Virus record (IMG/VR): IMGVR_UViG_2728369182_000007
DNA: 48,325 bases
Reading direction: 5' to 3' (one strand)
Source: a virus
Taxonomy: Duplodnaviria; Heunggongvirae; Uroviricota; Caudoviricetes
Numbering within the stretch: the stretch's first letter is position 1; every line of letters begins with the position of its first letter. The position numbers and the translations under genes are program-made. Shown here one piece after another: positions 11,311 through 29,488 of the stretch. Under the pieces are notes generated by a model. The model saw only the letters and a program-made list of their open reading frames with translations, did no database searches and was not told where the DNA came from.

Positions 11311-11586
11311 CGTACCCAGCACCGTCTCGGAGCCGGAGGATTCAAATCCCTCCGGCGGTGACTGCTCCTGCTCACCTGCCCGGAACACCACCGTGACACC
11401 GGAGATATTGGTATTCCCCTCACTGTCCAGCACTGGCGTACTGTTCAGCAGCACACTTTTTAATCCGTCCACCGGACCTTCAACCGGCCCTTCACTGATG
11501 GCGTCTATCACGCTCAGTATCTGGGATGATTTCAGGTTGTCCTTCGCTTCGCGCGGGGTATGCCCCTTACTGCTGCCTTTACCCAT
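11311..11586 (-). CDS. J: host specificity protein J, N-terminal fragment (third copy)
   Basis: MGKGSSKGHTPREAKDNLKSSQILSVIDAISEGPVEG... then gap. Confidence 0.8.
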
Positions 11587-11646
11587 TCCTCACGCTCCAG
11601 AAACGACAAAACCGCCCGCAGGCGGTTTCACATAAAACATTTTGCA

Positions 11647-12318
11647 TCAGCGACCAATCACCACAACCTGACCACCATCCCCTTCGTCTGCCGTGCTGAT
11701 CTCCTGAGAAACCACACGTGACCCCACGCGCATTTCCCCGTACAGAACAGGCAGAACATTACCCTGGGCAACCATGTTATCCAGTGACGAGAAATACGTG
11801 TTCTGTTTGCCGTTATCTGTACTGGCTGCCGTGGGCGTCCTGGCTTTCGGTGCCAGCATCTGAGCCACACCGCCGAGCACCATACTGGCACCGAGAGAAA
11901 ACAGAATGCCGGTCATACCACCGGCACCAATGGCAGCCCCCCATGCTGCAAGGGTGGCTCCGGCGGTAAAGAATGATCCGGCAATGGCGGCTGCTCCCAG
12001 GACAATCTGGAATACACCACCTGACTTGGCCCCGGCGACTCTGGGAACAATATGAATCACAGCGCCGTCAGGCAGAGCCTCATGTAACTGCGCCGTTAAT
12101 CCGGACGTGCTGACATCCTGTCCGGCAATACGCACCTGATACCAGCCGTCGCTCAGTTTCTGACGAAACGCCGGGATCTGCATGGCCAGCGCCCGGATGG
12201 CTTCGGACCCCGTTTTCACTCGAAGGTCGATGCGGCGGCCAAATCGTTGTAAATCCCCGTAAAGGCAGATGCGTGCCATGCCCGGTGACGCCAGAGGGAG
12301 TGTGTGCGTCGCTGCCAT
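11647..12318 (-). CDS. I: tail assembly protein I (second copy)
   Basis: 223 aa, near-identical to copy at 8204-8898. Confidence 0.85.
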   Translation of the reverse strand: MAATHTLPLASPGMARICLYGDLQRFGRRIDLRVKTGSEAIRALAMQIPAFRQKLSDGWYQVRIAGQDVSTSGLTAQLHEALPDGAVIHIVPRVAGAKSGGVFQIVLGAAAIAGSFFTAGATLAAWGAAIGAGGMTGILFSLGASMVLGGVAQMLAPKARTPTAASTDNGKQNTYFSSLDNMVAQGNVLPVLYGEMRVGSRVVSQEISTADEGDGGQVVVIGR

Positions 12319-12959
12319 TTGTCGGTGTACCTCTCTCGTTTGCTCAGTTGTTCAGGAATATGGTGCAGCAGCTCGCTGTCACCACAGTAAATGGCGGCAT
12401 GATTCGGCACCGATGAACCAAAACAGCACAGCAGCACATCGCCCGGCTGTGCCGCTGACAACGGCACCTGATACAGCCCTGTGGCCTCCAGATTATCCAG
12501 ATAGAGATTCTGACCGTGACGCCACCAGTCATCCTCGCGATGAAAATCCGGCATCTCAATCCCCGCCAGATGGTAAGCATCCCGGAACAGCGTGTAACAG
12601 TCCGTCACCCCGTGCTCAAAGCGCCGCCCGGAAAGATGTGGCACACAGCGGAACTTGTGAATCGCCCCCCGGCAAACCAGCCACCACGGCAAATTACTCT
12701 GCACCTGCAGCCGCCGGTCAGCCTCACTCAGCCAGGGCAGACCACCGGGGTGGCTGTGGACCAGCGCCACAATCTCACCCTGCATCTCTGCCCGCAGCCA
12801 GTCCTCCGGTGCGATACGAAAATACGCCTCCGGCTCTGCGGAAATATTCACACAAGGGATATACCGCTCCCCCTCCGGCGTGCTTATCACGAAGCCGCAC
12901 GACTCCGCAGGCGCACACCGCCGGGCATGCGCCAGAATCGCTGATTCAGTCTGTGTCAT
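12216..12959 (-). CDS. K: tail assembly protein K (second copy)
   Basis: 247 aa, near-identical to 8796-9539. Confidence 0.85.
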   Translation of the reverse strand: MTQTESAILAHARRCAPAESCGFVISTPEGERYIPCVNISAEPEAYFRIAPEDWLRAEMQGEIVALVHSHPGGLPWLSEADRRLQVQSNLPWWLVCRGAIHKFRCVPHLSGRRFEHGVTDCYTLFRDAYHLAGIEMPDFHREDDWWRHGQNLYLDNLEATGLYQVPLSAAQPGDVLLCCFGSSVPNHAAIYCGDSELLHHIPEQLSKRERYTDKWQRRTHSLWRHRAWHASAFTGIYNDLAAASTFE

Positions 12960-13654
12960 AAANNNNNNNNNNNNNNNNNNNNNNNNNNNNNNNNNNNNNN
13001 NNNNNNNNNNNNGAACTTACAGCCACTCAGGCATTTGCTGCATTTATCCTTCGTGATATCGGACGTCGGCTGATCATATTCATCCGCGACCGCCGGACCG
13101 CTATAACCGCACTCATCGCCGCGATAGGTCCAGGTGCAGGTGTTGGCCAGCATGATACGTCCCGGAAAAACAGCGCCGTCCGTTTCCGTCGGCGTGGACA
13201 GTACAAAGGAGGCACTGACCGCGCTCAGTTCGCTGCACTGCTCGATGCGCCAGCGGCTGATCACCTCCTGCTCCGGATCGGCGTCACTGTTTCCGTTGAC
13301 GAAGTTCACCGCATCCAGAAAACGGGCGTAAACCTTACGCCGGACCACCGTTCCGCCGACCAGACTCTGCAGATCTTCCGCCATCCCGGTGACCATGCCG
13401 TACAGATTAGAGACTTTAAGCGTTGGCCTAGCACTGGCTCCTTTGCCGTTCATCTCAAATCCGCTTCCCTGAATGGGATAAGCCTGATACTGCCGCCCCT
13501 GCCAGGTGACTGGTTCACCTTTTTCGTTCTGCTCATTACAGAAGAAATAACGATCTCCGCCGACCTCTGTCAGATCAATTTCCCAGAGCACGACCAGCGC
13601 GGATTGCTCCGTTTTAGTGCACTCATTGAGTGTTTCCTGCTGTATATCCTGCAT
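12956..13654 (-). CDS. L: minor tail protein L (second copy, 3' end in 50-N gap)
   Basis: MQDIQQETLNECTKTEQSALVVLWEIDLTEVGG...; gap begins at same position of L as in copy 1. Confidence 0.8.
   Translation of the reverse strand: MQDIQQETLNECTKTEQSALVVLWEIDLTEVGGDRYFFCNEQNEKGEPVTWQGRQYQAYPIQGSGFEMNGKGASARPTLKVSNLYGMVTGMAEDLQSLVGGTVVRRKVYARFLDAVNFVNGNSDADPEQEVISRWRIEQCSELSAVSASFVLSTPTETDGAVFPGRIMLANTCTWTYRGDECGYSGPAVADEYDQPTSDITKDKCSKCLSGCKFXXXXXXXXXXXXXXXXXL
12963..13012. other. assembly gap (50 N)
   Basis: run of N. Confidence 1.
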
Positions 13655-13953
13655 CAGTGAGTGACCTCTTCAAAGGTACAGTTAAAATCGGTATACATGG
13701 CATTATCCGAAATGCTCCACTCCCTGCAGACAACCCGGACAGTCCTGTTGTGTTTTGGCGGACGCCACAAAAAAGCACGAATCCCGGCATGACGGGATAA
13801 AAAACTGTCCAGCGCGGCACGGGAATATTCATCTGTGACACGAAATACCGGTTTAAACGTTTTCAGATCCGCATTCAGACCACCAGCCCGTCTCTGTTCA
13901 TATCCGTCACCAAACTTTACCGTAATAACTGATGGCTTTCGTGTCGTCTCCAT
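13654..13953 (-). CDS. M: minor tail protein M homologue (divergent allele)
   Basis: Shares ...FGDGY.QR...GLNADLKT... core with M at 10251-10580 but otherwise divergent; start placed at METTRKPSV (ORF extends to 14040). Confidence 0.7.
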   Translation of the reverse strand: METTRKPSVITVKFGDGYEQRRAGGLNADLKTFKPVFRVTDEYSRAALDSFLSRHAGIRAFLWRPPKHNRTVRVVCREWSISDNAMYTDFNCTFEEVTH

Positions 13954-13987
13954 CCCCTCACGGGGGATCCAGTTAAAAACTTCAGGC

Positions 13988-16006
13988 TCAGGCACTGTAC
14001 AATCCTCCATCCCGACGCGATGACTGCATAATTGACACAACCCTGCTGTCGATCAGATCCACCAGTCCCCTGGCTGAGCGCGCATCTATCTCGCCATTGC
14101 TCCCTTGATTCTGAATGCTGATGTGATACACGGGAGAATAAACAACCCCCCCGCCACTATTCACATTGCCAATGGCTCTGACCCCAAGAGAGCCGTCCGC
14201 TGCCCGTGTCAGTGGCATGATAGCTTCAGGCCCGGCCTCGCCCATCAGCCCGGCACCTTTCGCAAAAGCAAAATACGTCGGTGTATCCACAATAGTGTTA
14301 CTGTAAGCACTCAGATTTGCCGATGTGTAAACACCACCTTTTGCGTTTGCCACCGCCCCCGAAATCCATCCGCCGACCGTACCAAGCCACCCTCCGGCAC
14401 CGGAGAGTGACTTCAGTCCGTTAACAATGGCCGCATTCATCAGAATTTTTGAAACTTCCTGGAGAATTGAACTCCCCCAGTTTCTCCAGTCCACAACATT
14501 TCCGGCCAGCGCATCGGAAATATTTGATACCAGCCCGTCCATAGTGGAAACGACAGCATCTGCCGCCTGCGAAGCATAATCGGTGGCACTGTCTGCCCAG
14601 TTGGTCAGCCCCTCCTGGAGTCCTGCATTCCAGTTATTACGTAAAGCATCGGCCTTTGCATAATAATCCTGCTGATCGCTGAGACGCTCTTCCAGATATT
14701 TTTTATTCAGTTCTTTCTCCTGTTTCCACAGGGCTTCTTCAATTTCTCCGGCCTGATACTGTCTCAGCAGCTCGTTATTTTTCTGCTCAAACTCATGCCG
14801 GATACTCCACATTTCCTGGAGTCGTTCACGCATCCGTGAGCCTTCACCATATCCCAGTAACTGCGCGTCGTTAGACGCCCGGGTACTGGCATTACTGTCC
14901 GCCAGGCTGCTTTCATACGCAGCAAGCTGCTCACGAATCTTTTTCTGGTCGATGAGTGCTGCATTCTGCAAAAGCGTTTTTTTCTGCGCTTCTGACAGGG
15001 TTGATAATTCGCCCTGACTGACCTGATATTTCATCTTAGCCAGTTCAGTATTCTGCCCTGCCAGTGCTATCTGTTCTTTTTGCTGTTTAATCAGCCGTTT
15101 ATAAATATCTTCTGTTTTTTCCGCTTCGGTCTTTTTATGCGCTTTGGGTTTATTTGCCTGGTTATTTCGCCAGGCATCCAGTGAGTTATTGATATAATTC
15201 TGTCTGGCTGTCTGATACGCCTCTCCCACAAAGCCGAGATCATCCGCAGCATAGCCCAGTCGGGCACGCTCACGCGCTTCCCCCTTAAGGCGGGACAGAG
15301 CCAGTTCGCGCTTGCTGTTATTCAGTGCGGTCTGCTGTTTATCATCCAGGGTTGCCTGTGGTAGCCGTAACGGTACATTCACCAGCCCCTGTCGCTGCTG
15401 AAGTAATTCATTACCAAGCCCAAGAAGGCGATTAAACTCGGTATGCTGCCCATTCATGATCAACAGGGACTGATACGCTTTGTTTTGTTCCGCCGCCTGT
15501 TGACGGATCAACGCAACCCGCCGCTCCTCCAGCCCGGCAAGCACATCCTGAATGGATTGCGCTTTGCCCTGCATTTGTGTGAGACGGGACTGTTCAACTG
15601 CCAGTTGATTTGTTGCTTCTGCAAGCCCTTCTGTGACTGTTTTTACCGACGTCATGTGGTTAATCATAAAACCGTTATCGGTTGTCCAGCCCGGGTTTGC
15701 CAGCACATACTGATAGCCAGCAATTTTTTCCTGTAAGGATTTAATCTTACTTTTCTGCTCGTCAATTAACCTGTTTTGCTCATCAAGTGCCTGCCGCGTC
15801 TTTTCCTCATTATCTGACGCTTCAGGAAGCGACATTGCCGACGTTTTCTGGCGAATTTCGTCGATTGTTGCGGCATACTGGCGTGCAGATTCTCTGGCCT
15901 GCTCCTGATTCTGATACATCGTGTACCAGGCCGCGGCCCCCAGCATGACAAGCCCCGGCACCCCACCAACCAGTCCCAGTGCTCCACTTAACAGACGACT
16001 TCCCAC
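13988..16006 (-). CDS. H: tail tape measure protein, C-terminal 672-codon segment (after in-frame TAG)
   Basis: Coiled-coil rich central region and Gly-rich C-terminus; same frame as 16031-17221 ORF; GTG start only if independent. Confidence 0.75.
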   Translation of the reverse strand: MGSRLLSGALGLVGGVPGLVMLGAAAWYTMYQNQEQARESARQYAATIDEIRQKTSAMSLPEASDNEEKTRQALDEQNRLIDEQKSKIKSLQEKIAGYQYVLANPGWTTDNGFMINHMTSVKTVTEGLAEATNQLAVEQSRLTQMQGKAQSIQDVLAGLEERRVALIRQQAAEQNKAYQSLLIMNGQHTEFNRLLGLGNELLQQRQGLVNVPLRLPQATLDDKQQTALNNSKRELALSRLKGEARERARLGYAADDLGFVGEAYQTARQNYINNSLDAWRNNQANKPKAHKKTEAEKTEDIYKRLIKQQKEQIALAGQNTELAKMKYQVSQGELSTLSEAQKKTLLQNAALIDQKKIREQLAAYESSLADSNASTRASNDAQLLGYGEGSRMRERLQEMWSIRHEFEQKNNELLRQYQAGEIEEALWKQEKELNKKYLEERLSDQQDYYAKADALRNNWNAGLQEGLTNWADSATDYASQAADAVVSTMDGLVSNISDALAGNVVDWRNWGSSILQEVSKILMNAAIVNGLKSLSGAGGWLGTVGGWISGAVANAKGGVYTSANLSAYSNTIVDTPTYFAFAKGAGLMGEAGPEAIMPLTRAADGSLGVRAIGNVNSGGGVVYSPVYHISIQNQGSNGEIDARSARGLVDLIDSRVVSIMQSSRRDGGLYSA

Positions 16007-16030
16007 TGACGTGACAGTATTCAGCGTTGT

Positions 16031-17221
16031 CTATGCTGCTGTTCTGGCCGCAATATTACGGGTAAGTGATGCCTGGGCAGCAGCCAGTTTCGCTTCTGCG
16101 GCTGCCTGCCTTTCGGTACCGCGAGCAGCAACAACCGCCTGTTGCGCACGATAAACCGCCGCACGCGCCCTGGCTGTTGCTATCTGTGTCCCCCGGAGCT
16201 GCGCTTCCGCAAGAGCCACTTCGTTTCTGGCTGCAGTAATTAATCCGGCAGTTGCAGATCCAGCAGAAGACGCCATATTGCCAAAATATCGGGCTACCCC
16301 GACGGCAACCAGAGCACCGGCAGCGGTTGCCACAGTGTCAATATTGCCTGCAATACCATTCAGCACACCGGAGAGCGTCTTCGTCACTCCGCTTGCCTCG
16401 TTCGCACCACCAACCCAGGCCATAAAGGCGTTTTCAACTTTGGTTGCAGAGGATGAAACCGTATCAGGCATTGCCGCATATTCATCACGTAATGCCCCAA
16501 GCTGACTAATCAGTGCAGGAACAACCTTATCGGCGGTCAACTTTCCGTTATCCGCCATGGCCTTCAGATCCTTACGGGCAACCCCCATTCCCGCAGCCAG
16601 CGCACGAATAACACGATCGCCGTTCTCATTCACCGAGTTAAACTCTTCACCGCGCAGCACTCCCTGCGCCAGTGCCTGACTGAACTGCGTGATCACCGAA
16701 CTGGCTTCTGCTGTACTGGCACCGGATAATTTCAGGCCCGTGGAGATCGCCTCGGTGACTTTCAGTACCTCCTCAGAACTGTAACCATACTCCCGCATGG
16801 AAGCTGCAGAACGGGCAAAAAGGCTGGCGTTATCAGAAAACGCCGTCCCCGTTCTCTGGCTGATCGCCATTAATTCACGCTGTGATGCCTGAAAATCATC
16901 ACTGGACTGTGAGGCCTGCTTCAGACGGGCATTTACTGAATTCCACTCATCGGCGAAAGAAATAAGATGACCGGTAGCAAAAGCCCCGGCAAATGCCCCC
17001 GCCATATTCAGTGCCGAAGATTTAGCTGTATTTATCTGATCCGTCACTTCTGCCAGTGCACGCCGCATTTCACGGGATGCAGCAGCGGACTGCCGGCCTC
17101 CGTTCTGCATGGTACGGTAGTAATCCTGCCCCATACGCGAAGCCCGGGAGATCTCTGACTGGAATGACCGGGAATTTGCCGAGATTTTAATAATCAGTTC
17201 ACGTAATGTCGCCACACTCAT
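16031..17221 (-). CDS. H: tail tape measure protein, N-terminal 396-codon segment ending at in-frame amber codon
   Basis: N-terminal domain typical of tape measure proteins (…SDNASLFARSAASMREYGYSSEEVLKVTEAISTGLKLSGAS…); TAG at 16031-16033 on minus strand. Confidence 0.75.
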   Translation of the reverse strand: MSVATLRELIIKISANSRSFQSEISRASRMGQDYYRTMQNGGRQSAAASREMRRALAEVTDQINTAKSSALNMAGAFAGAFATGHLISFADEWNSVNARLKQASQSSDDFQASQRELMAISQRTGTAFSDNASLFARSAASMREYGYSSEEVLKVTEAISTGLKLSGASTAEASSVITQFSQALAQGVLRGEEFNSVNENGDRVIRALAAGMGVARKDLKAMADNGKLTADKVVPALISQLGALRDEYAAMPDTVSSSATKVENAFMAWVGGANEASGVTKTLSGVLNGIAGNIDTVATAAGALVAVGVARYFGNMASSAGSATAGLITAARNEVALAEAQLRGTQIATARARAAVYRAQQAVVAARGTERQAAAEAKLAAAQASLTRNIAARTAA

Positions 17222-17231
17222 TCTCCGGACG

Positions 17232-17253
17232 AAAAAAAACCGCCGAAGCGGTT
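17232..17253 (-). terminator. hairpin plus U-tract between T and tape measure genes
   Basis: ACCGC-CGAA-GCGGT stem-loop followed by T8 on minus strand. Confidence 0.35.
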
Positions 17254-17261
17254 ATGTTGAC

Positions 17262-17552
17262 TCACTGAGACACTATTAAAAGCGCGTTTTCCAGTCCGGC
17301 AAATGGATCTGATACGCCTTCTGTCTGCTCCTTCTCCCACTGAAGAAGCGCATCATTCAGTGGCACTTTGACCCCCTGCGCACCGTAAACAGCTGAAACA
17401 ATCTGGGCAGCCCGGATATCAGCCCGTTCGTCCCCCAGCGGGCTGAACCTGTCAAATTCTGCCCACATCATGATTTCTGATGCGGACATTTCCCGGCGTA
17501 ACTCTGACAATGTGCGCCCCATCCTGAGCGCCAGCATCATCAGAAAACGCAT
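17262..17552 (-). CDS. T: tail assembly chaperone T-like frameshift extension (expressed as G-T fusion)
   Basis: ORF in -1 frame relative to G, directly downstream of slippery site; position between G and tape measure. Confidence 0.7.
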   Translation of the reverse strand: MRFLMMLALRMGRTLSELRREMSASEIMMWAEFDRFSPLGDERADIRAAQIVSAVYGAQGVKVPLNDALLQWEKEQTEGVSDPFAGLENALLIVSQ

Positions 17553-17563
17553 CCCCGGAAGCG

Positions 17564-17950
17564 CTACTTTTTTTTAACCTCGCCGGCATCACTGATCAGT
17601 TCCAGAGACTGCCGAAGAAGCCGCGCATGCACCGGGCCATACACGGCAATCACCTGTTCACGATCATCCTCTGAAAATACGGGTTGCAGTCCGGTATCAC
17701 ACAGAACATCAATGAACAGTTCAACATCTGCCTCCAGATTTCGGCGGGCGCGCTCCGCAACGGATAACGGTGTCTCATCATCTTTTGCTTTAACGATCTC
17801 CTGCCAGCGCAACCAGGCTTCTGCAGAAGGTTCCCGTAACACAACCGTTGCTCCCTCCCATTCAGGCACATCAACGGTTTTATGGCGAAACCCCGACATC
17901 GTTGCCAGTGCCAGATTACGGATATTTTTAGTCATCACATCCATCCTCAT
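17564..17950 (-). CDS. G: tail assembly chaperone G-like
   Basis: 128 aa acidic protein between major tail gene and tape measure, ending ...GEVKKK* at slippery run. Confidence 0.7.
   Translation of the reverse strand: MRMDVMTKNIRNLALATMSGFRHKTVDVPEWEGATVVLREPSAEAWLRWQEIVKAKDDETPLSVAERARRNLEADVELFIDVLCDTGLQPVFSEDDREQVIAVYGPVHARLLRQSLELISDAGEVKKK
17567..17575 (-). promoter_or_regulatory. programmed -1 ribosomal frameshift slippery site (A AAA AAG)
   Basis: mRNA reads GTT AAA AAA AAG TAG; -1 slip continues into T ORF (…KKVALPGMRFLMM…). Confidence 0.6.
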
Positions 17951-18654
17951 TAACTGACGGTTACAGTGCAGGAAGTGGAGGTCACTTTGTTAACCGGGCT
18001 TGCTGAATCAGAAATCTCGCAGGTATATGCACCCGCATCACCGGATACTGCCGATGCCTTACTGAACGTTGCCGCCGTCTGTCCGGAAACAGGAGAACCA
18101 CCTTTCTTCCAGACATAAGAATAAGGCGGCACACCACCCGCAGCCTCAACCGCCATTTCAAGTTTCGCTCCGGAAGCAACCCGCAGCGTGCTTTTTAAAT
18201 CGGCCTTCACTTTCAGCGGCTCTGTCGTCAGCACAGGTTTACCTTTCAGGCGCAAGGAAAACGTTGCAGCCACAACACCATTGGTTCCTGCAGACCAGGT
18301 ATGCTGACGCACCTCTGCCATAAAGGTAAATCCGTTGCCTGACGGAAAAATAACTTTAAAGCCATACGTGGTGTCATTGTCATAGGCACTGCGCAACGCG
18401 TTCTGGGCAGCATTCAGATAAAAGTTGCCTGACATGGAAATCTCTGAAGCAGCCCCAAGGCCGTTAATATTTTCCTGCTCAACAGAACACAGCGTGGTGA
18501 CATCAATATCCTGCTTTTGTCCTGCGGTAAACTGCACCTCTTTGATTGTACAGCTCAGGCCAAGATAGCTGGCAGAATCCAGGGTTTCTGCTGTTACCGG
18601 TGCAGACGAAATCATAATTTTCGTCAGTTGCGAACGCTCAAAATTAGAGGACAT
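17950..18654 (-). CDS. V: major tail protein V with C-terminal Ig-like domain
   Basis: 234 aa; position and size; C-terminal ~80 aa resembles Big_2 Ig-like decoration domain. Confidence 0.8.
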   Translation of the reverse strand: MSSNFERSQLTKIMISSAPVTAETLDSASYLGLSCTIKEVQFTAGQKQDIDVTTLCSVEQENINGLGAASEISMSGNFYLNAAQNALRSAYDNDTTYGFKVIFPSGNGFTFMAEVRQHTWSAGTNGVVAATFSLRLKGKPVLTTEPLKVKADLKSTLRVASGAKLEMAVEAAGGVPPYSYVWKKGGSPVSGQTAATFSKASAVSGDAGAYTCEISDSASPVNKVTSTSCTVTVS

Positions 18655-18666
18655 ACTCGTCTCCTG

Positions 18667-18694
18667 AAAATAAAAAAACCCGCCAGCGGCGGGT
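18667..18694 (-). terminator. hairpin plus U-tract upstream of major tail gene
   Basis: CCCGCC-AGC-GGCGGG stem followed by T-run on minus strand. Confidence 0.4.
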
Positions 18695-18714
18695 GGGTAA
18701 AATCATTAATGACC

Positions 18715-19059
18715 TCAGGCTATTACTTGGAATTCAAGCGTGGCTCTGCTCAGACGGGAGTCAGGATCATAACCCTGCGTTTTAGAAATAACGGAGGGTG
18801 CCAGTTTTCTTACCGCATCAAGCGCCTGCTCACGAATATTATCTGCGTCATCAGGTACTGTCGCCCAGACATCGATCTGCACGGTAATTCTGGATTCAGC
18901 CTGCCCATCAAGCACATCAGATGCCGTGTCAGACACCACAGAAAACACCAGCCACGGCGGAGATACCGCAGGCTTTCCCTCCGTCAGTGGGACCACATAA
19001 GGATAAACCTGTCCTCCGGCCAGCTGAGACAACAGGGAATACAGTGTGGCCTCTCTCAT
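18715..19059 (-). CDS. tail terminator / tail completion protein (U-like)
   Basis: 114 aa ORF immediately upstream of major tail gene; assignment by position. Confidence 0.5.
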   Translation of the reverse strand: MREATLYSLLSQLAGGQVYPYVVPLTEGKPAVSPPWLVFSVVSDTASDVLDGQAESRITVQIDVWATVPDDADNIREQALDAVRKLAPSVISKTQGYDPDSRLSRATLEFQVIA

Positions 19060-19505
19060 TTACTTAAGACCTCATCAATAGCCTGATTCATTCGCTGTAT
19101 GGCAATCCGTGCTGCCAGTTCCTCTGTCGTATCGAAAGCCGGGCGAATGAATGGATGCGCGGGCATGTTTATCGTTCCCAGCTCCACAAAGCGCCAGTAA
19201 AATGCATTTCGGGGATCGCTGGCTTTCATGCTGTTATCACTGTTTCCGGTTCGCAGGTTCCGTCCGCGAATGTGGACACCCGAGATAATTTCCCCCCGAC
19301 GCTTTGAACGCTGAGTGAGAACAACCACATTTTTCTTCAGTTTCCCGGTTCGCTCCGGCGCACGTTCAACAACTGCATCCCGCATAACTTCAGCACCGGC
19401 ACGGGTGGCATCGCGCAGAACCTTATTGTTTTCTGCCCTGCTGAGCGTCTCCAAATCCCGTGCAATATCCGCCAGGCCGGAAAAATCAAGACTGAAATCC
19501 ATCAC
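19056..19505 (-). CDS. HK97 gp10-like head-tail joining/tail component protein
   Basis: 149 aa ORF in conserved position; assignment by gene order and size. Confidence 0.5.
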   Translation of the reverse strand: MMDFSLDFSGLADIARDLETLSRAENNKVLRDATRAGAEVMRDAVVERAPERTGKLKKNVVVLTQRSKRRGEIISGVHIRGRNLRTGNSDNSMKASDPRNAFYWRFVELGTINMPAHPFIRPAFDTTEELAARIAIQRMNQAIDEVLSK

Positions 19506-19840
19506 ACATTCCCCTTCAGGCTGCAGAGTATTTCAAGCCGGGTAGCGCGTGCATCCGGTATTGGTGGACCTTCTATACCCAGAATGGCCCCTTTAAATGC
19601 ACCGGTCAGCACTTTCAGACGTGAAGTCGCTGTCACATCGCGCCGGAATCTCATCCAGACTCTGACCGTAGCCTGAGCGGTTTCTGCTCCGCCTGAGATT
19701 ATCTCCCTCCCGCTGATACCCTTAACTTCTGCCCATACGGTAGCTCCCTCCGTCACCGTCTCCACCGGATGCCCTGACGGAGAGCGGGCGGTGGTGACAT
19801 TCAGAATAATTACGCGATCACGTAATCTGCCCGCCTGCAT
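19502..19840 (-). CDS. head-tail adaptor (head closure) protein
   Basis: 112 aa ORF in HK97-like order between connector and gp10-like gene. Confidence 0.5.
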   Translation of the reverse strand: MQAGRLRDRVIILNVTTARSPSGHPVETVTEGATVWAEVKGISGREIISGGAETAQATVRVWMRFRRDVTATSRLKVLTGAFKGAILGIEGPPIPDARATRLEILCSLKGNV

Positions 19841-19848
19841 GTCTCCTC

Positions 19849-20166
19849 CTACAAAGGAATAAAACGATAAGGCTCCAGCAGAGAAGAAAAACCAAACGGG
19901 ACTGGTGCCTTGCTGACATCTGAGGAATTTTCCCGGTTTTCGTACCAGTGCCCGACCAGCAACATGAGCGCCAGCAAAACATCATCAGCTATAAGCACCC
20001 CTTCAGGATCACCTTCCGGCACCGTCTCCTCATAAAGCTTACGGTTGATAAAATTTTCTGCCTTGCGGCAGGCAGCCCGGAAATACAGCATCAGTAACTC
20101 ATCATCAGTTGCATCATCTGTATCAATACGGCACTGCGCCCTGAGTTTTTCCACTATTGCTGCCAT
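19849..20166 (-). CDS. head-tail connector (HK97 gp6-like)
   Basis: Start placed at MAAIVEKL with AGGAG RBS; longer ORF would run through the capsid terminator. Confidence 0.5.
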   Translation of the reverse strand: MAAIVEKLRAQCRIDTDDATDDELLMLYFRAACRKAENFINRKLYEETVPEGDPEGVLIADDVLLALMLLVGHWYENRENSSDVSKAPVPFGFSSLLEPYRFIPL

Positions 20167-20198
20167 CAGAAACTCCTGCCCGCAACACTGTGCGGGCA

Positions 20199-20221
20199 TA
20201 AAAAAACCGCGTCGGCGCGGT
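20199..20221 (-). terminator. rho-independent terminator downstream of major capsid gene
   Basis: ACCGCG-TCGG-CGCGGT hairpin with U-tract on minus strand, preceded by a second hairpin at 20178-20197. Confidence 0.55.
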
Positions 20222-20242
20222 CTGTAACTGAACAACGAGTGG

Positions 20243-21460
20243 TTATTTGCCAGTGAGCGCCTTGATGGCTGCCACATCTTCCAGCACACAGTCAAAACGA
20301 TGGAAAGCCAGAAATGCCACCTGATCAAACTCAGCATAACGCTCAACCAGACGTTTCAGTTCCATATAAGTAACGCGGCGAATGATAAAGCGGTTGAAAT
20401 CCCCCAGGAAAATGAATTTTTTTCCGGTACCAATCCCGTCAATAGCCTGATCAATAACATAAGGGATCCCCAGCACAGTAGCCGGCGTACCGCCTGCAAT
20501 ATCCGGCAGCCATAACGGGCGTTTCTGTCCATCCTCCATCTCTTCAATAGTCTGCAATGTGGCATCATTGAATGCCCAGCGGTATTTCGGCCCACCACGA
20601 TATGCCGGATCAATGGCATGTTTCAGGGCATTCATTTCTTTCCAGGTGAAAGCGGCAGAGGCTGCAGTCTGGATGATTCCCGTCACCGACGCTGCCAGCC
20701 CTTTTGGCTGTAACGGTGATCCCGTTCCGGTCCCCTGAACCAGATATTTCGCCTCTCCACGACCAATACGCTGGGCAATACGGTTTGCCAGATAAGATTC
20801 AATATCCACCCCACTGTCCTGGAGCAGCTCATTGGACACACGAATTATTTTTGATGACAGCTTTTTAGCCCCCAGAATAGCGGTCCCGAACGTCACATCC
20901 TGTTCCGTTGCGGCTGTATTTTCCGCCAGCAGTTCGCCCTCTTCAGTCGTGCCATCAGACGTTGACCAGGTGATATCCTGCCCGGTTGATGTGGTCAGAA
21001 GTTGCGCAACACTGGCAATCCCGCCATAAGCCTTCATGGTGTCAATGATTTTGTTACGCATCTGCGTGGGCACCGTATATCCGCCCTGAGAATCCGTTGT
21101 TACACTCTGAGCCCGCAGTTCACGCATCAGATTACGCTCTTCAGCATTCAGTTCTGCAAATCCGGCACGCAGAAAACGGTTAAATGCCGCAGCGCGCTTC
21201 TCTTCCACCGCCTTTTTCCCGTTCTCCGCCTCATTATTCTGGCGCTCTTCCGGCCCGGACTCATCCACATATGCCTGATCCTGACGGCGCAACTCTTCTT
21301 CACGGGCGATTTGCTCATCCAGCGCATCCAGCTCAGCTTTCGCCCTGTTCCACTCTGCCCGTTGCTCATCAGTCCATGCGTTATCACCAATTTTTTCATG
21401 CAGTGCACGCATATCCTTTGCAATGGTGTTTCGTTTTTGCTTCATCTCATGAAGTTTCAT
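20243..21460 (-). CDS. major capsid protein, HK97 family
   Basis: 405 aa, acidic coiled N-terminal delta-like region then capsid fold-sized domain; follows protease and portal. Confidence 0.85.
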   Translation of the reverse strand: MKLHEMKQKRNTIAKDMRALHEKIGDNAWTDEQRAEWNRAKAELDALDEQIAREEELRRQDQAYVDESGPEERQNNEAENGKKAVEEKRAAAFNRFLRAGFAELNAEERNLMRELRAQSVTTDSQGGYTVPTQMRNKIIDTMKAYGGIASVAQLLTTSTGQDITWSTSDGTTEEGELLAENTAATEQDVTFGTAILGAKKLSSKIIRVSNELLQDSGVDIESYLANRIAQRIGRGEAKYLVQGTGTGSPLQPKGLAASVTGIIQTAASAAFTWKEMNALKHAIDPAYRGGPKYRWAFNDATLQTIEEMEDGQKRPLWLPDIAGGTPATVLGIPYVIDQAIDGIGTGKKFIFLGDFNRFIIRRVTYMELKRLVERYAEFDQVAFLAFHRFDCVLEDVAAIKALTGK

Positions 21461-21474
21461 CGTCAGTAGTATCC

Positions 21475-22074
21475 TTATGCATTAAGAAGGGTCAAAAGAC
21501 GCTCACGCGCCATTCGTTCGTTAACAGCTTTCTTCAGCGCACCACTCGCCCGCGCTTCCTGCCAGGCTTTCATTGAGCGGACACCAGAGTCTGCGTCCTG
21601 ATAGGCCGGATATGTCACCGGGCTGACGTCATACAGACGAGAAATGCGCGTGATTTCCCGGATAACAATCCCCTCGTCGTCTTCATACCAGCTCTCTCCA
21701 TCACGAGCGACGCGAAACGCGAACGAGGACTGATTAATGTCACCACGCAACATTGGTGACAGCACCAGGTCACAAATCGTCGGCGTATCCGGTGCAACAA
21801 TGTCGTAACGCAAACCACGTTCATCCACTGATAATGACAACGTGCCGGCAGAACTTCGTCCGAGAATGAAATTAGGATCATGATTAAACAATCCACGTAC
21901 ATCATCATTCAGCACGTCGTCAAAAGCCCCCGGCTTGATGATTTCACGAAATCCCCACAGAGGTTCTGAACGACTGTTAAATACCGAGCCATACCCCAAA
22001 ATATGAGTCGGGGCATTATCATATTGTTCTGCCCGCACTTCCCCGCTGTAACAGCGCGTTTCACGGTCATTCAT
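21475..22074 (-). CDS. prohead protease (HK97 family)
   Basis: ~200 aa ORF between portal and capsid; start placed at MNDRETR overlapping portal stop. Confidence 0.75.
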   Translation of the reverse strand: MNDRETRCYSGEVRAEQYDNAPTHILGYGSVFNSRSEPLWGFREIIKPGAFDDVLNDDVRGLFNHDPNFILGRSSAGTLSLSVDERGLRYDIVAPDTPTICDLVLSPMLRGDINQSSFAFRVARDGESWYEDDEGIVIREITRISRLYDVSPVTYPAYQDADSGVRSMKAWQEARASGALKKAVNERMARERLLTLLNA

Positions 22075-23293
22075 CGTTCTTTTCCTCTTTGCCTTTCGTA
22101 TCTTTAAAATCATTCAACGGATTTGCTGCATTTACGCTGACCAGCATTTCATCCAGACCATCAACCGGGTTCATGTCCTCAAATGCCCTCGCTTCATTCC
22201 GGCTCATCCAGCCATCTGTAATGGCAAAGTGATAAAACTGCGCACGCTCCTGTGGAGTCCCGCGGAGCAATCCTGTAAGGTTGAAACGAACGTAATACCC
22301 GGCAGCCCGTTCTGTGCGGGTAAACAGGCGACGGTTAAGCTCCTGCTCCCAGTTCGCAACCCAGGGCATCATCGTGTAGCGAACAAACTGAATCGCCTGC
22401 TGTGTAATATTCGAAAATGTGGCTTTTTCCAGGTCATTAATCATGTGCGCCGGGACATTAAAAATTCCGGCAATCATCGACCGGTTCAGCTTGGTCATAT
22501 CAATGATCTGAGCATCCACCGGAGAAACTGTCAGGGCACGGTAATCCAGTTGCGCAGGCAGCAGCATGGTTTTATTTTCCTGACTGCGAAGCGCTGTCAC
22601 CGCCCGCTGCCACATATTCTTGAGCCTGCTCCAACTCTGTTCGTTCAGTTCATTTTTCACAGAAATAATCCCGGCAGGACGGGCATTACCGTTAAAAAAA
22701 GCACTGGTATACTGCTGACCACTCATTCCCATACCAATGGTTTCAGCATGCTGCATGATCGGACTCAGTCCCATTTTCTGATTGTTTCCCAGCGCCCTGA
22801 TATGGATCATGTCGTCCGGACTTACCGCAAATGCACCCTCTTCGTTATACACACCGTAGGTATGACGCCCTCCAGTGTTAAGTAACGTGGTTTCCCATGG
22901 CATACAGCATTCAAGACTGGTAACCTCGCCACGACGATTACGTTTCACCCACGTATAACCATTGCCCCACCCCAGCACATGACGCTGCTTCAGTTCCCGC
23001 CACTTATAGCTGGTCTGCCAGGCATTCGGTTCATCATGAACGAGCCAGAACAACGGGTGATCGCGTGCCGGCTGAACATGCTCATTCGTTTTTCGCATCA
23101 CATGCAGGGGCATCTGAGCCACACTGGATGAAATAACATAAATACAGGCATAGACAGCAGCCAGCCTCATGGACGTTTCCGGACTGACATACACATCCCG
23201 GGCAAAAATATTATCCGTCTCAGCGGCCTCTCCGGTTACCGGAACCGAGGGATTTTCCAGAGGCTCACTGCGAAACAGAGCATCAAGAAGCAT
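22067..23293 (-). CDS. portal protein (HK97 family)
   Basis: 408 aa ORF downstream of large terminase. Confidence 0.8.
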   Translation of the reverse strand: MLLDALFRSEPLENPSVPVTGEAAETDNIFARDVYVSPETSMRLAAVYACIYVISSSVAQMPLHVMRKTNEHVQPARDHPLFWLVHDEPNAWQTSYKWRELKQRHVLGWGNGYTWVKRNRRGEVTSLECCMPWETTLLNTGGRHTYGVYNEEGAFAVSPDDMIHIRALGNNQKMGLSPIMQHAETIGMGMSGQQYTSAFFNGNARPAGIISVKNELNEQSWSRLKNMWQRAVTALRSQENKTMLLPAQLDYRALTVSPVDAQIIDMTKLNRSMIAGIFNVPAHMINDLEKATFSNITQQAIQFVRYTMMPWVANWEQELNRRLFTRTERAAGYYVRFNLTGLLRGTPQERAQFYHFAITDGWMSRNEARAFEDMNPVDGLDEMLVSVNAANPLNDFKDTKGKEEKNDE

Positions 23294-23423
23294 GTTTTCT
23301 CCTCATGGACACCACCAGTGCATAAAGCAGCAACAAACAGCCAGACAGCATCAGAGACGCTGGCAGACCTGCATACAGATAAACGCCAGCAGTGAGCAGA
23401 CCGAAACCGATCAGCCCGGTCAT
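23283..23423 (-). CDS. possible small hydrophobic protein (46 aa) between terminase and portal
   Basis: ATG at 23421-23423, translation MTGLIGFGLLTAGVYLYAGLPASLMLSGCLLLLYALVVSMRRKHAS; below ORF-track cutoff, not verified. Confidence 0.25.
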   Translation of the reverse strand: MTGLIGFGLLTAGVYLYAGLPASLMLSGCLLLLYALVVSMRRKHAS

Positions 23424-23440
23424 ATCAGTAATAAGCTGTT

Positions 23441-25198
23441 TCACAGAATTAACAGGTCCTCATCAGGATCAAGCGTGGACAGAAAGTCATTCACGCCCCC
23501 GCCATTTACCAGAAAGCGGCTCATGGCTGTAAAAAGCGCAACAGGGCCGTCGATTTTGGCTTCCGGCGTGGATTTATTCGGGAAGATGTTGTCGTTTTTG
23601 TCCGGTTTTACAGTAACGTTAGACATCATCCAGTTCATGACCGGATGATTGCTGTGATGGAAACGCCCGGCATAAACCAGTGATTCCGTTTCCTTCATGG
23701 CCTCTGACAGATTGCGGACCGTCTGCGGAACCTCCACCAGCGGTATCCCTTCTTCAGCCAGTGCCAGACTGAACTGCATTGCGCTCCACGGGTCAAATCC
23801 CAGTTCCCTGAGGTTTTCACCGCCAATCCATTCCAGTAAGTCACTTTTTATCTGAGCATGATCGATAACATCACCATCCGTCAGGATGAGCTTATCCATC
23901 TCCGCCCACTTCCGGTAAAGTTCTGCCTGCTGCCGCGAGCATCGTTCCAGCCGTCCTTCCGGAAGCCAGAATTTAAAATCAGCATGAACATGTCCGTTAT
24001 CGGTTCGCCAGAGTTTTGCCGCCGCACAGATATCAATCTTATGAGCAAGGTCGACGCCGACCCACATGGGATATGTTTTCAGCTCATGTTGTGGAGCAAT
24101 GTATTCGCACTTCTCCCACTTAATCATATCCATCCAGGCAGATTCGGCAGTGACCCACACATTCATGTGTTTGGTAAAAAAATTCACCCGCGCAGAGACC
24201 TGCTCCTTCGCTTTTTTCGCCAGACGACGCAGATCATCCCAGCGTTTACAGATGCCCAGGCCAGGATTCGCTTTCTGCCAGACCGTTTCATCAAACGGAT
24301 CATCTCCCTCATCGAGCGTGTAAATGATCGCAAAGTAAGAGTCGTCTTTTACAGCGCCCTCCACGTCGCTGTTATAGCCTCGCAATACCTTGATGGCGTA
24401 ATCACGCTGCTCGTAACAAATCCCTTCCTTGTTAAAGCCAGCCGTGGTGATACCAAATAACAGGGACTGCAGACGGGCACCGGTTGCCGTTTCCAGAACG
24501 TCCCACACGTCGCGGGTTTTATGTGCATGCAGCTCATCAATAATGGCGCAGTGGATGTTCAGACCGTCCAGGTTGTTTGCATCCGAGGAAAGCGGTTCAA
24601 ATTTTGATGCGCTCTGCTCCTGGTAAATCGCCAGCTTGTTGAAATCAAACAACCGCCCGAGTGTCGACCGGGCTTTTCTGACCATATTTTTGGCGTCTTC
24701 AAACACGATTCTGGCCTGGTCACGCGTGGTTGCGGCTGAATACACCTCAGCTCCGCCTTCACTATCTGCCCCCGTCATATACAGGCCGATACCCGATGAC
24801 AGGGTTGATTTTGCGTTTTTACGGGCGACTTCGTTGTACGCCGTCCGGAACCGGCGCACCATCACCGGACGTCCGCTGCCATCGCTGCGCATGACAACTT
24901 CCCCGGTTTCTTCATTGACCAGCGGAATGACAAAACCAAAAATATTAATGAGGATAAATACATGCCAGTCCATCAACTCAATGGGCTGGCCTGCCAGTGC
25001 CCCTTTTACATGAGGCACAAATTTGTAGAAATTCAGGATGTGCTGCGCACGGGGTTCACTGAAATAAATCCCCCGCTTTTCGCCGTACTTCAGATCATCA
25101 AGAAAACGCTGGCAGGCCAGGCGGACAAATTCGCCAGCAACAATTTCTCCTGCAACAACACGTTCGGCGTAGCGGATCCCGTCAGCCACTTTTGCCAT
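23441..25198 (-). CDS. terminase large subunit
   Basis: 585 aa, ATPase N-terminal and nuclease C-terminal regions; directly downstream of small subunit. Confidence 0.9.
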   Translation of the reverse strand: MAKVADGIRYAERVVAGEIVAGEFVRLACQRFLDDLKYGEKRGIYFSEPRAQHILNFYKFVPHVKGALAGQPIELMDWHVFILINIFGFVIPLVNEETGEVVMRSDGSGRPVMVRRFRTAYNEVARKNAKSTLSSGIGLYMTGADSEGGAEVYSAATTRDQARIVFEDAKNMVRKARSTLGRLFDFNKLAIYQEQSASKFEPLSSDANNLDGLNIHCAIIDELHAHKTRDVWDVLETATGARLQSLLFGITTAGFNKEGICYEQRDYAIKVLRGYNSDVEGAVKDDSYFAIIYTLDEGDDPFDETVWQKANPGLGICKRWDDLRRLAKKAKEQVSARVNFFTKHMNVWVTAESAWMDMIKWEKCEYIAPQHELKTYPMWVGVDLAHKIDICAAAKLWRTDNGHVHADFKFWLPEGRLERCSRQQAELYRKWAEMDKLILTDGDVIDHAQIKSDLLEWIGGENLRELGFDPWSAMQFSLALAEEGIPLVEVPQTVRNLSEAMKETESLVYAGRFHHSNHPVMNWMMSNVTVKPDKNDNIFPNKSTPEAKIDGPVALFTAMSRFLVNGGGVNDFLSTLDPDEDLLIL

Positions 25199-25680
25199 CA
25201 GTCTCTCGCTTTTAAAAGCTCTGCCAGCGGATCAACATTATCCGGTCCGGCGGTATTTACTTTTGCCCGGCTTGCCGGTGACATACCAAATTCTGCAAGC
25301 ATCGCCCGGATCCGCTTCCAGGCATCCGCTTTCATCGCAGCAGCCGGGTGTGCCTTAATCAGCACATCACCGTTCTGCGTTTCCGAGCGGTAGGTGTACC
25401 CCTCAACATCGAGTGTTTCGCAGTGATGCCGGTATTCGGTATAGGCTTCCACCAGTAGCTCAAGCGCACGCGCATCAAGCTGAGAAATGATCCCTTCCGC
25501 ATTCAGCTCTTCCGCCATTCGCCTGAACCAGTACTTCCCCTGCGCCCCTAAATGTTGCGGAATTTTAGGGAGACCTTTTTCATCCTTTTTAGCGGTTTTT
25601 TTGAGGTCTTTAACTGGCCGCTTTGAGGGGTTGCCTCGTATCAAATGCAGGCGTGGCGGGGTTTTCGGGGGTCCAGACAT
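25198..25680 (-). CDS. terminase small subunit (P27-like)
   Basis: 160 aa basic N-terminus; immediately upstream of large terminase. Confidence 0.7.
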   Translation of the reverse strand: MSGPPKTPPRLHLIRGNPSKRPVKDLKKTAKKDEKGLPKIPQHLGAQGKYWFRRMAEELNAEGIISQLDARALELLVEAYTEYRHHCETLDVEGYTYRSETQNGDVLIKAHPAAAMKADAWKRIRAMLAEFGMSPASRAKVNTAGPDNVDPLAELLKARD

Positions 25681-25827
25681 AATCGGTTTTACCTATCAAT
25701 CATTTAATCACATTCCAAAAAAAAGTTTTCGAACCTGCGGCGATGCGAGGAAAGGTCAGGCGGCGGTACTGAGCAGCCAGGGTTGCAGAGATTTGACCCG
25801 CCCCTCCCCTACAGATGGGAACTGTTA
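25681..25827. other. candidate cos / packaging site region
   Basis: Non-coding interval between HNH endonuclease and small terminase, the canonical cos location in HK97-like phages; exact site not resolved. Confidence 0.3.
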
Positions 25828-26178
25828 TCAATTGATGCGTTCGCGCGCTGTTTTTGCTTTATGACAGGGCCAGCACAGACTCTGCAGGTTACTGTCTGCA
25901 TCCGTGCCACCATGAGCTTTCGGAATGATGTGGTCCACAGTTCTGGCTTCAACGGCTCTCCCATTGCGCAGGCAGTTCTGACACAGATGATTATCACGCT
26001 TCAGTATGCGCGCACGTATGGCATCCCATTTCGAGCCATAGCCACGCTGGTGGCGGCTCAGTCCGCGTTGATGCTGTACCCATCCTTCGCCACGATGTTT
26101 ATCGCAGTAACCAGAACTGTCTGTGGTTGTACCTACACATCCACGCTTACGGCAGGCGCGTGGGATTCGTGATGGCAT
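25828..26178 (-). CDS. HNH endonuclease
   Basis: 116 aa with Cys-rich N-terminus and ...VDHIIPKAHGGTDADSNLQSLCWPCH... HNH motif. Confidence 0.8.
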   Translation of the reverse strand: MPSRIPRACRKRGCVGTTTDSSGYCDKHRGEGWVQHQRGLSRHQRGYGSKWDAIRARILKRDNHLCQNCLRNGRAVEARTVDHIIPKAHGGTDADSNLQSLCWPCHKAKTARERIN

Positions 26179-26220
26179 AAATACCTCATACCCTGCGAAA
26201 TGTTTACCACGATAAAAAGG

Positions 26221-26700
26221 CTACTTAATGCACTGAGTGCGGATATACTCCTGTGCCCCTTCCAGTTGCATCTGCATCGTCATCAGCCGCTCTCTGAGGG
26301 TGAAATAATCCCGTTCAGCGGTGTCTGCCAGTCGGGGGCTGGTTGCATTATCCACGCCGGAGGCGGTGGTGGCTTCACGCACTGACTGACAGACTGCTTT
26401 GATGTGCAACCGACGACGACCAGCGGCAACATCAGCGCGCAGAGTTTCATTTTCAGCTTTCGCATTGGCTAATTCTCTCGAGTACTTTGCATCGAGCGCA
26501 GCAACATCACGCTGACGCTGCTGCATGTCAGCGATGGTGGCGATCGCCTGCTTCAGCTCACTGACTTTTTTATCACGCTGTTCTTTGTAGGCGATGGCGT
26601 TATCACGGTAATGATTGACCGCCCACGACAGGCAGACGATGATGCAAATAACCAGAGCATAAATAATCGCGGCGACTCTGCTCACTGATCTATCCCCCAA
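26221..26700 (-). CDS. Rz: i-spanin Rz
   Basis: 159 aa, N-terminal TM then coiled coil; contains embedded Rz1. Confidence 0.8.
26283..26465 (-). CDS. Rz1: o-spanin Rz1 (lipoprotein embedded in Rz)
   Basis: 60 aa, lipobox LVVVGC, proline-rich PPPPPAW. Confidence 0.75.
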
Positions 26701-27215
26701 CAGGCTAATGCGCTTTCCTGGTCACGACGAATAACCTGTCCATAGCAGTTATTTGAACGTATGCGGCAATCGCGCCCACCATCTTTTATCCACCAGCGAA
26801 TCGCCTCGCATGCGCCCTTACGATCACCGGCATTCAGCCGCTTATAAAACGTCGACGGAAAACACTTACCGGGGCCAATGTTATAGGGACAGAATGACGC
26901 GATACCCGCTTTTTGTGGTTCGGTCATTGGTACTTTAATATTGCGCTCCACCCATGCCAGCGCCTTATCACGCTCAATGGCGTTGACCTGGTCGCATTTT
27001 TCCTTCGACAGTTTCATACCGGGAAAAACGGGTTTTCCATCCACCATCGTGGCACCCCGACAGATGGTCCAGATGCCGGCCCCATCGCGGTATGCCGTTG
27101 TGTGGTTACCTTCTTTTTCATCCAGAAACTGGTCAAGTATTTGAGGAGCAGACGCACCTGCAGCAATCAGCGCCAGAACCGCAGCTGACAGGCCGTATTT
27201 GATTTTTGCGCTCAT
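26682..27215 (-). CDS. R: SAR-endolysin (lysozyme, phage 21 R-type)
   Basis: 177 aa with weakly hydrophobic Ala/Gly-rich N-terminal signal-anchor-release segment followed by lysozyme-like domain; paired with pinholin. Confidence 0.8.
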
Positions 27216-27270
27216 GGATATTTATCAGGATGCTACCAATGAAAGATACTGGAAAGCCAACTGCAAAAAG

Positions 27271-27585
27271 CTAACAACCTGTAATCGAGTTATCAGAACT
27301 GTTAATTTTTATGGTATACCGCGCCTCTGAACAGGGGCGCGTTTCTGGCAACAGCTCGTCCCCTTCACATAACCCGGCAGCAACATCCAGGAAGACCTGT
27401 CTGATGCTCCTTCTGGCTGCTGCCTCATAAAACTCCAGCGCTGCACCTTCAACACGGTCCAGCGAGATGTCCAGGTCAAAAATTTCACCGTCAAAGCGTT
27501 TTTTGTCCCGTAACGCTAAAGTTACCGTAACTTTATTCTCAAAATTGCGGATCCCTTTCACAATCAGTTCATAGTTTTGAGTCAT
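27271..27585 (-). CDS. hypothetical protein (104 aa) inserted between holin and endolysin
   Basis: ORF; N-terminal ~100 aa homologous to the 297-aa protein at 35900-36793. Confidence 0.55.
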   Translation of the reverse strand: MTQNYELIVKGIRNFENKVTVTLALRDKKRFDGEIFDLDISLDRVEGAALEFYEAAARRSIRQVFLDVAAGLCEGDELLPETRPCSEARYTIKINSSDNSITGC

Positions 27586-27589
27586 TGAA

Positions 27590-27805
27590 TTACTCTCCCC
27601 GTGCAGCCTTACGCTTGTCTTCTCTGATTTTGAAGTACAGATTTGTCAGATAAGTCAGGAAGCCCAGAACCAGACTCCCCAGAACACCAATCGCAGCCCA
27701 CTGTGACGGACTGACCTGATCAAGCCACTGTAAAAACCAGTAGCCAGCACTGCCTGCGGAGGTGCCGTAGGCAATGCCCGTTGAAATTTTGTCCATGGAT
27801 TTCAT
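27590..27805 (-). CDS. S: pinholin (S21-like), dual-start MKSM
   Basis: 71 aa [71 protein letters not shown], matches phage 21 pinholin as recalled. Confidence 0.85.
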
Positions 27806-27865
27806 AGCCTCACCTCCGCAAATAACGGATGGCGTAGTTTTACACTGAGAAATGAAAGGGATTTG

Positions 27866-27890
27866 AAAAGAAAAACCCGCAAAAGCGGGC
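27866..27890 (-). terminator. terminator-like hairpin upstream of holin
   Basis: CCCGC-AAAA-GCGGG stem followed by U-tract on minus strand. Confidence 0.4.
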
Positions 27891-28097
27891 GAAACGATAT
27901 ATACAGAAAGGAAAGCACTCTATCCAACAAACCACCCACAGTTGATCGGAATAAAAGCAGAGTGCTTATGAATGATCGCCTGCCCGAAGGTTAGTATTTC
28001 TGCACAGCAATTTTGCAAAAAAAGGCGATCATTCATAACTTAAACGTCTTTCAGTCACTCCGGGATTTCCCATCATCGCAGACTGAAAGACTCTGAC

Positions 28098-28172
<75 letters not shown>

Positions 28173-28175
28173 ATA

Positions 28176-28251
<76 letters not shown>

Positions 28252-28253
28252 AC

Positions 28254-28330
28254 TGGACCGCCACCGGGGACTCGAACCTCGCACTCTCAACTTAAAGGGT
28301 TGACGCTCTTTCCTGATGAGCTAGTGGCGG
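28254..28330 (-). tRNA. tRNA-like gene with anticodon loop CCUUUAA (apparent anticodon UUU, C33)
   Basis: Manual fold: acceptor CCGCCAC/GTGGCGG, D-arm, anticodon stem TCAAC/GTTGA, T-loop TTCGAGT, CCA; non-canonical C at position 33. Confidence 0.5.
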
Positions 28331-28331
28331 T

Positions 28332-29480: not shown

Positions 29481-29488
29481 CAACAACA

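Follow-up and report, generated by a model that had tools for sequence, protein, structure and literature searches.

A single in-frame amber codon interrupts the tail tape measure gene of a lambdoid prophage in a scaffolded draft sequence

Results

A tape measure gene read in one frame with one internal stop

The IMG/VR virus record IMGVR_UViG_2728369182_000007 (Duplodnaviria; Heunggongvirae; Uroviricota; Caudoviricetes) is a stretch of 48,325 nucleotides, here called the window, whose minus strand carries a tail tape measure protein (TMP) gene of the lambda gpH / HK97 gp16 type. An earlier note, made from the letters alone, had proposed that two open reading frames (ORFs), 16031-17221 and 13988-16006, share a reading frame and together encode one tape-measure-like protein of about 1077 amino acids (aa), separated only by a TAG at 16031-16033 and eight sense codons before a GTG, with no frameshift required. 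Translation of the region bears out these coordinates and the arithmetic: both halves lie in one frame, the joined translation has a single internal stop, and the eight codons between the TAG and GTG 16006 read ACA ACG CTG AAT ACT GTC ACG TCA. The features of the gene are as follows.

13988..17221, minus strand: complete TMP reading frame of the lambda gpH / HK97 gp16 type, 1077 codons from ATG 17221, with one interruption
16034..17221, minus strand: N-terminal fragment, 396 codons from an ATG start, carrying TMP_3 and matching phrog_339 positions 1-414
16031..16033, minus strand: in-frame amber TAG; the plus strand has A at 16033 (coding-strand T), whereas in relatives the base is G (coding-strand C) and the codon CAG (Gln)
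13988..16006, minus strand: C-terminal ORF, 672 codons from GTG 16006, matching phrog_339 positions 427-1114

RefSeq places the start of this protein at GTG 17215, two codons later than ATG 17221, which gives 1075 aa; the amber is codon 395 in RefSeq numbering and codon 397 counted from ATG 17221.

The assignment to the tape measure family is likewise upheld by domain content. When the stop is read as Gln, the joined protein matches Pfam TMP_3 at residues 86-274 (1.5e-57), Phage_HK97_TLTM at residues 397-688 (5.4e-93) and Tape_meas_lam_C at residues 863-934 (8.8e-14), the second of these matches beginning exactly at the position of the stop. The two halves also match consecutive parts of the PHROG tape measure family phrog_339 (1-414 and 427-1114 of 1123), and because both fall within this one family, the ORFs are halves of a split gene rather than chance neighbours. 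The same follows from alignment of the joined translation with intact TMPs, a check that the earlier note had proposed, which returned identity to WP_001552446.1 apart from the change of Gln to a stop. By domains and synteny, then, the locus is an HK97/lambda-type TMP gene with a premature stop: the family domains are present and the position in the tail operon fits, and what it lacks is a single uninterrupted ORF of ~1075 aa. If the base at 16033 is real, the gene is a pseudogene and should be annotated as one.

One transition separates the window from its intact relatives

Across the 3234-bp region, the window differs from E. coli IHE3034 at exactly one base, coding position 1189, which is T (TAG) in the window and C (CAG) in IHE3034. 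The amber thus amounts to one transition in a CAG codon for Gln, C to T as read on the coding strand and G to A at window position 16033. The TMP gene finds matches in 1,896 records from 1,890 of 5,426 complete E. coli genomes, 886 of which cover at least 80% of the gene, and the best matches come from the B2 extraintestinal strains IHE3034, PMV-1, UPEC 26-1 and HM670. In all four the gene is annotated as intact and as encoding a "phage tail tape measure protein" of 1075 aa (WP_001552446.1), to which the window protein is identical at 1074 of 1075 residues.

We found the amber in no other sequence that we searched. A 61-mer centred on the stop codon matched 739 complete E. coli genomes at 777 places, none of them exactly; all matches lay within 95-99% identity, the best at 98.4% (one mismatch). 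A 49-mer carrying the TAG had 0 matches in IMG/VR, against 28 for the CAG control, and 0 in metagenomes, against 10 for the control; among GTDB representatives both the TAG 49-mer and the CAG control gave 0, which makes that scan uninformative. CAG stands at the site in 38 of the 38 loci recovered from IMG/VR and metagenomes, and the aligned residue is Gln in IHE3034, phi467, HK544 and a Stx1 phage, the last three with TMP genes of 97%, 86% and 77% nucleotide identity to the window, respectively. An exact look-up of the truncated N-terminal product, as 396 aa or as 394 aa with the RefSeq start, returned nothing from an index of 153 billion genes, and a search of the literature for nonsense mutations in the TMP genes of E. 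coli prophages returned nothing specific to the prophage in the window. Because the 61-mer, the TAG 49-mer and the protein look-ups give no exact match, the amber is private to the window sequence and derived from CAG by one transition.

Other interrupted copies of the gene

Although this stop is private, the gene is found interrupted elsewhere. The 672-aa C-terminal ORF is recorded in three Logan contigs, which carry the same TMP allele with CAG at the site of the window's stop. In these contigs, among them one from SRR33512672 (our locus L044, TMP gene at 8792-12019), codon 381 has changed independently from CAG to TAG, 14 codons upstream of codon 395, the amber in the window (RefSeq numbering), and the matching 380-aa N-terminal product occurs in five contigs, one of them an NCBI entry. 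In addition, 5 of the 38 IMG/VR and metagenome loci (L011, L017, L019, L020 and L024) have 1-nt indels inside the TMP gene, which may be real or sequencing errors. Given an independent amber lineage and indels in 5 of 38 loci, disrupted copies of this TMP are common in public assemblies, and the case in the window is unremarkable.

At first sight, a 394-aa protein, P0018, seemed to show this stop a second time. The contigs that encode it end 2 nt before the codon and belong to a different allele, so it is a partial protein cut off by the contig end. Eight public contigs of this sister allele end at that point, 2 nt before this codon (window 16033-16035), yielding 394-aa 'partial' proteins (L048, L049). 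The point, at which the Phage_HK97_TLTM match also starts, is probably the border of a mosaic module or of a repeat, or else marks an insertion in that clone, and its agreement with the position of the stop looks like a coincidence.

A near-identical contig in a scaffolded draft

The earlier note did not take up one property of the window that bears directly on a single-base call, namely that it is a draft joined into a scaffold across ten runs of N (10-78 bases).

4389-4466, 5995-6004, 8237-8300, 9600-9609, 11301-11310: first five N-runs
12963-13012, 34275-34284, 43609-43618, 47247-47256, 47582-47591: last five N-runs
13013..34274: gap-free contig of 21,262 bp bearing the TMP gene, from the L gene to the replication region, with N-runs at both ends

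The longer N-runs (78, 64 and 50 bases) are collinear with relatives, and several of the 10-N joins link pieces that are not adjacent; one of them, for example, sets codon 92 of J beside the C-terminus of a different TMP.

The contig that bears the TMP gene aligns end to end and without indels to a prophage of E. coli HM670 (O2:H1), with two differences only, the amber at 16033 and a change at 33979, the latter a synonymous TTG-to-CTG (Leu) change in a replication-region gene. None of the complete genomes matches the contig with fewer than two mismatches. The adjoining contig of 1,652 bp (11311-12962) is 100% identical to HM670. All 27 of the other coding sequences (CDS) compared on the contig, a set from which two CDS running off the contig ends were left out, encode proteins identical to those of HM670; they extend from M to DUF977 by way of the head genes, terminase, the lysis genes, Q, RusA, DUF968, hokD and QueH. 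As read from these comparisons, the TMP gene appears to be the sole damaged gene in an otherwise pristine 21 kb. The integrase of the matching HM670 prophage (43308-44358 of our HM670 locus, L005), which corresponds to a region outside the window, is annotated as frameshifted, and the HM670 prophage also carries cdtABC beyond its tail fibres, in a region that the window does not include.

A real substitution or an error in the draft

We consider that the amber is probably a real, recent and private nonsense substitution in a lambdoid prophage of a B2-type E. coli. Several observations favour this reading. Over 22.9 kb, the contig is free of indels relative to the nearest complete genome and has just one further transition, a synonymous one; because two bases and no indels separate it from HM670 and the adjoining contig is 100% identical, the accuracy of the consensus looks high. 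Two differences per 23 kb are an ordinary distance between strains of one lineage. Both private differences (16033 and 33979) are transitions, and among spontaneous changes in E. coli G:C to A:T is the most frequent. Homologues with as little as 77% nucleotide identity retain the Gln, and there are precedents for such lesions in the independent amber at codon 381 and the indels in 5 of 38 related loci.

Several properties of the record pull the other way. Its ten N-runs mark it as a scaffolded draft, the allele is known from this sequence alone, and an error of one consensus base would look identical. The 21-kb contig shows no other inactivating lesion and with it no independent sign of decay, and the integrase and attachment sites fall outside the window. 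It is therefore possible, though the less probable account, that the TAG is a base-call or consensus error in the draft assembly and that the true genome has CAG and an intact TMP. Such an error would fit a draft scaffold in which small contigs are interleaved between N-runs, a singleton change missing from every other public sequence searched, and a gene otherwise 100% identical to the intact allele of at least 28 complete genomes. However, the lack of indels and the single synonymous transition in 22.9 kb suggest an error rate that is low relative to plausible strain divergence, and none of the 777 matching places is a paralogous copy with T at the site from which the consensus could have been contaminated.

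The earlier note had offered three readings of the stop: a nonsense mutation, a sequencing error or a suppressible stop. The first two are both supported, a real mutation being the more probable of the pair. The third, taken as a design of the phage, finds poor support in what follows.

Readthrough, recoding and re-initiation

A stop in place of a conserved Gln could in principle be functional, with a leaky or suppressible amber read by a suppressor transfer RNA (tRNA) or by recoding so as to make or tune full-length TMP. The change from CAG to TAG is one that a supE-type tRNA-Gln(CUA), or background misreading as Gln, would revert to the wild-type residue, and the base following the TAG is A rather than U. 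A passage in PMC8954436, citing Nilsson and Ryden-Aulin 2003, describes low-level misreading of UAG in suppressor-free E. coli that inserts Gln, and a passage in PMC5289835 describes +4U as a stop context that lowers readthrough. Since misreading of UAG gives Gln and the next base here is A, a trace of exactly wild-type TMP is possible, which would be leakiness and not design.

Three features of the sequence argue against a functional stop. The stop is conserved in no relative. None of the six tRNAs in the window (Gly-tcc, Thr-tgt, Lys-ttt, Met/Ile2-cat, Arg-tct and Met/Ile2-cat) has a CUA anticodon. Finally, 6 of the contig's 28 genes (G, the head-tail connector, Rz, YdfR, Q and DUF977) genuinely end in TAG, from which it follows that the phage is not recoded from TAG to Gln; we rejected an amber-recoded phage on these terminators and the tRNA content. 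In this phage family, no member is known to require readthrough of its TMP. With no suppressor tRNA in the window, TAG terminators nearby and a stop that is not conserved, programmed readthrough or recoding is not supported by the sequence, and we regard a functional stop as very improbable. The tRNAs themselves form two clusters, each downstream of a Q gene, at 28098-28407 (Gly-tcc, Thr-tgt, Lys-ttt and a cat-anticodon tRNA annotated as tRNA-Ile in RefSeq relatives) and at 41160-41410 (Arg-tct and another cat-anticodon tRNA).

The locus might instead make two polypeptides, the 396-aa N-terminal piece and a 672-aa piece re-initiated at GTG 16006. Re-initiation is conceivable with a GTG just 8 codons past the stop, the Phage_HK97_TLTM match opens exactly at residue 397, and the second lineage, with its amber 14 codons upstream, keeps the same 672-aa ORF. 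Yet there is no Shine-Dalgarno-like sequence before GTG 16006 (GAATACTGTCACGTCA GTG), which makes independent expression of the 672-codon ORF unlikely. Each of the 16 intact full-length homologues among the 38 loci, like the complete genomes inspected, has a single ORF, and the apparent third example, P0018, is a contig-end partial rather than a stop. Katsura reportedly found in 1987 that the tape measure of lambda, gpH, sets tail length as one continuous ruler, at odds with a protein in two parts. A working pair of polypeptides is, in our estimation, the most improbable of these accounts.

The tail operon and the expected consequence

The TMP gene sits in a lambdoid tail operon of standard layout with the order V-G-T-H-M-L-K-I-J(1-92) at 18654..11311 (tblastn map), in agreement with the annotation of IHE3034 and HM670. 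It is preceded by V, for the major tail protein, and by the tail assembly chaperone genes G and T, and is followed by the tail-tip genes M, L, K and I and the beginning of J. Its nearest neighbours are the following.

17950/17935..17564, minus strand: chaperone gene G, 100% aa identity to IHE3034 G
17552/17540..17262, minus strand: chaperone gene T, 100% aa identity to IHE3034 T
13654..14010, minus strand: minor tail protein M homologue, overlapping the TMP 3' end; intact, 118 aa, identical to HM670

The 3' end of G reads GTT AAA AAA AAG TAG, with a slippery A AAA AAG at 17573..17567 (minus strand) just 5' of the TAG, and T sits in the -1 frame relative to G. Because this arrangement follows the lambda/HK97 paradigm, the A AAA AAG site is predicted to be the programmed frameshift site expected for G/GT. 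Between T and the TMP start lies a terminator-like hairpin, AACCGCTTCGGCGGTT, followed by a T-run (17238-17253, minus strand); a rho-independent terminator is annotated at the equivalent place in HK544.

If the base is real, the G-to-A change at 16033 would have turned Gln codon 397 (CAG) of a canonical TMP gene into an amber, and translation would end after 396 residues, leaving the N-terminal fragment as the only expected product. That product stops just short of the first hydrophobic segment (LLSGALGLVGGVPGLVMLGAAAWY). Missing from it are the last 680 residues, among them the HK97_TLTM module and the C-terminal domain of lambda type. In lambda, the C-terminus of gpH belongs to the tail-tip initiator. 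The truncated protein would be unable to build a tail tube of set length or to join such an initiator. Q-modified late transcription resists termination, and little polarity on the downstream genes M to J is expected. The TMP of TP901-1 cannot do without its first hydrophobic region or its last 60 residues, and no tails form when its C-terminus is deleted (PMC5099701). As the truncation removes regions that known TMP biology marks as required, we infer that the prophage would be tail-defective if the amber is real. Once induced, it might be expected to produce DNA-filled heads and normal cell lysis with almost no infectious particles, and the exact wild-type protein would be regained only through rare misreading of UAG as Gln or in a supE-type host.

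The remainder of the scaffold

To the left of the contig with the TMP gene, ORF lists over positions 1-13012 mislead, as the tail genes there look truncated and duplicated. We considered whether the truncations and duplications of J, I, K, L and M and the second TMP C-terminus reflect a rearrangement of the prophage, and rejected this in favour of contigs chained together with N-runs. The region consists of small contigs interleaved from at least two lambdoid prophages. From the first prophage come J residues 1-92, I and K, all 100% identical to HM670; the other pieces are the C-terminus of a second TMP (H'), M', L', K', I' and J' residues 1-713, as well as J 94-602 and a piece that covers J from 630 to its end together with the side tail fibre (99.9% identity to APEC O1). 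None of the junctions examined in these left 13 kb was found in any complete genome, and J, H' and J' look truncated because contigs break off at N-runs, not through lesions.

At the other end, positions 34285-48325 belong to a second lambdoid prophage, ~99.85% collinear with the draft scaffolds KI532270.1 and KI531845.1. Its genes include Rz, lysozyme, DUF1327, DUF826, a 658-aa SASA/NanS-p-like esterase, Q, RusA, DUF968 and DUF977, and the space from the tRNAs to the esterase holds no stx-sized ORF.

Discussion

What the amber means depends on whether the base is real, and beyond annotation its significance is in either case small. If real, it marks a copy of the prophage that would lack tails and be unable to transmit itself or the cargo genes of its relatives (cdtABC), and it provides a small example of the onset of prophage decay, seen against a near-identical intact relative. 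If an error, it shows the need for caution when a single base in a draft scaffold suggests a pseudogene. A more speculative view is that a real amber is not neutral, reflecting either recurrent selection in B2 E. coli for a prophage that is tail-less and competent in lysis and cargo, or a leaky, Gln-restoring stop that throttles virion production. It is prompted by the two independent ambers (Q381 and Q395), which fall 14 codons apart and just upstream of the first hydrophobic segment, and we hold it to be a very long shot.

Among known elements, the window is most like the lambdoid prophages of the CDT-I type in IHE3034 and HM670, with which it shares the V-G-T-H-M-L-K-I-J operon position and the Pfam domains. 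It differs from them at codon 395, which is CAG in their TMP and TAG in the window copy, where the gene would be annotated as a pseudogene. The amber-recoded phages (code 15; some crAss-like phages and Lak phages) also have TAG where Gln belongs; in contrast to these, TAG takes the place of Gln just once in the window, no suppressor tRNA is encoded there, and 6 of the 28 neighbouring genes use TAG to terminate.

A closer genetic parallel is with the amber (sus) mutants of lambda H, in which the tape measure gene carries a single CAG-to-TAG transition. Conditional-lethal ambers arise from CAG or TGG by a single transition to TAG, and the window's stop is one such change. The lambda H amber mutants make no functional tails on sup0 hosts, and supE hosts rescue them by inserting the original Gln. 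Those mutants came from laboratory mutagenesis and selection, whereas the amber in the window, if real, arose in a natural lysogen. It also resembles prophage decay, where a disrupting mutation is missing from close intact relatives, although with no second lesion in 21 kb the prophage in the window would stand at the very first step of that process. The lesion is thus of a kind already known: genetically it is like a lambda H amber, and ecologically it is like the first step of prophage decay.

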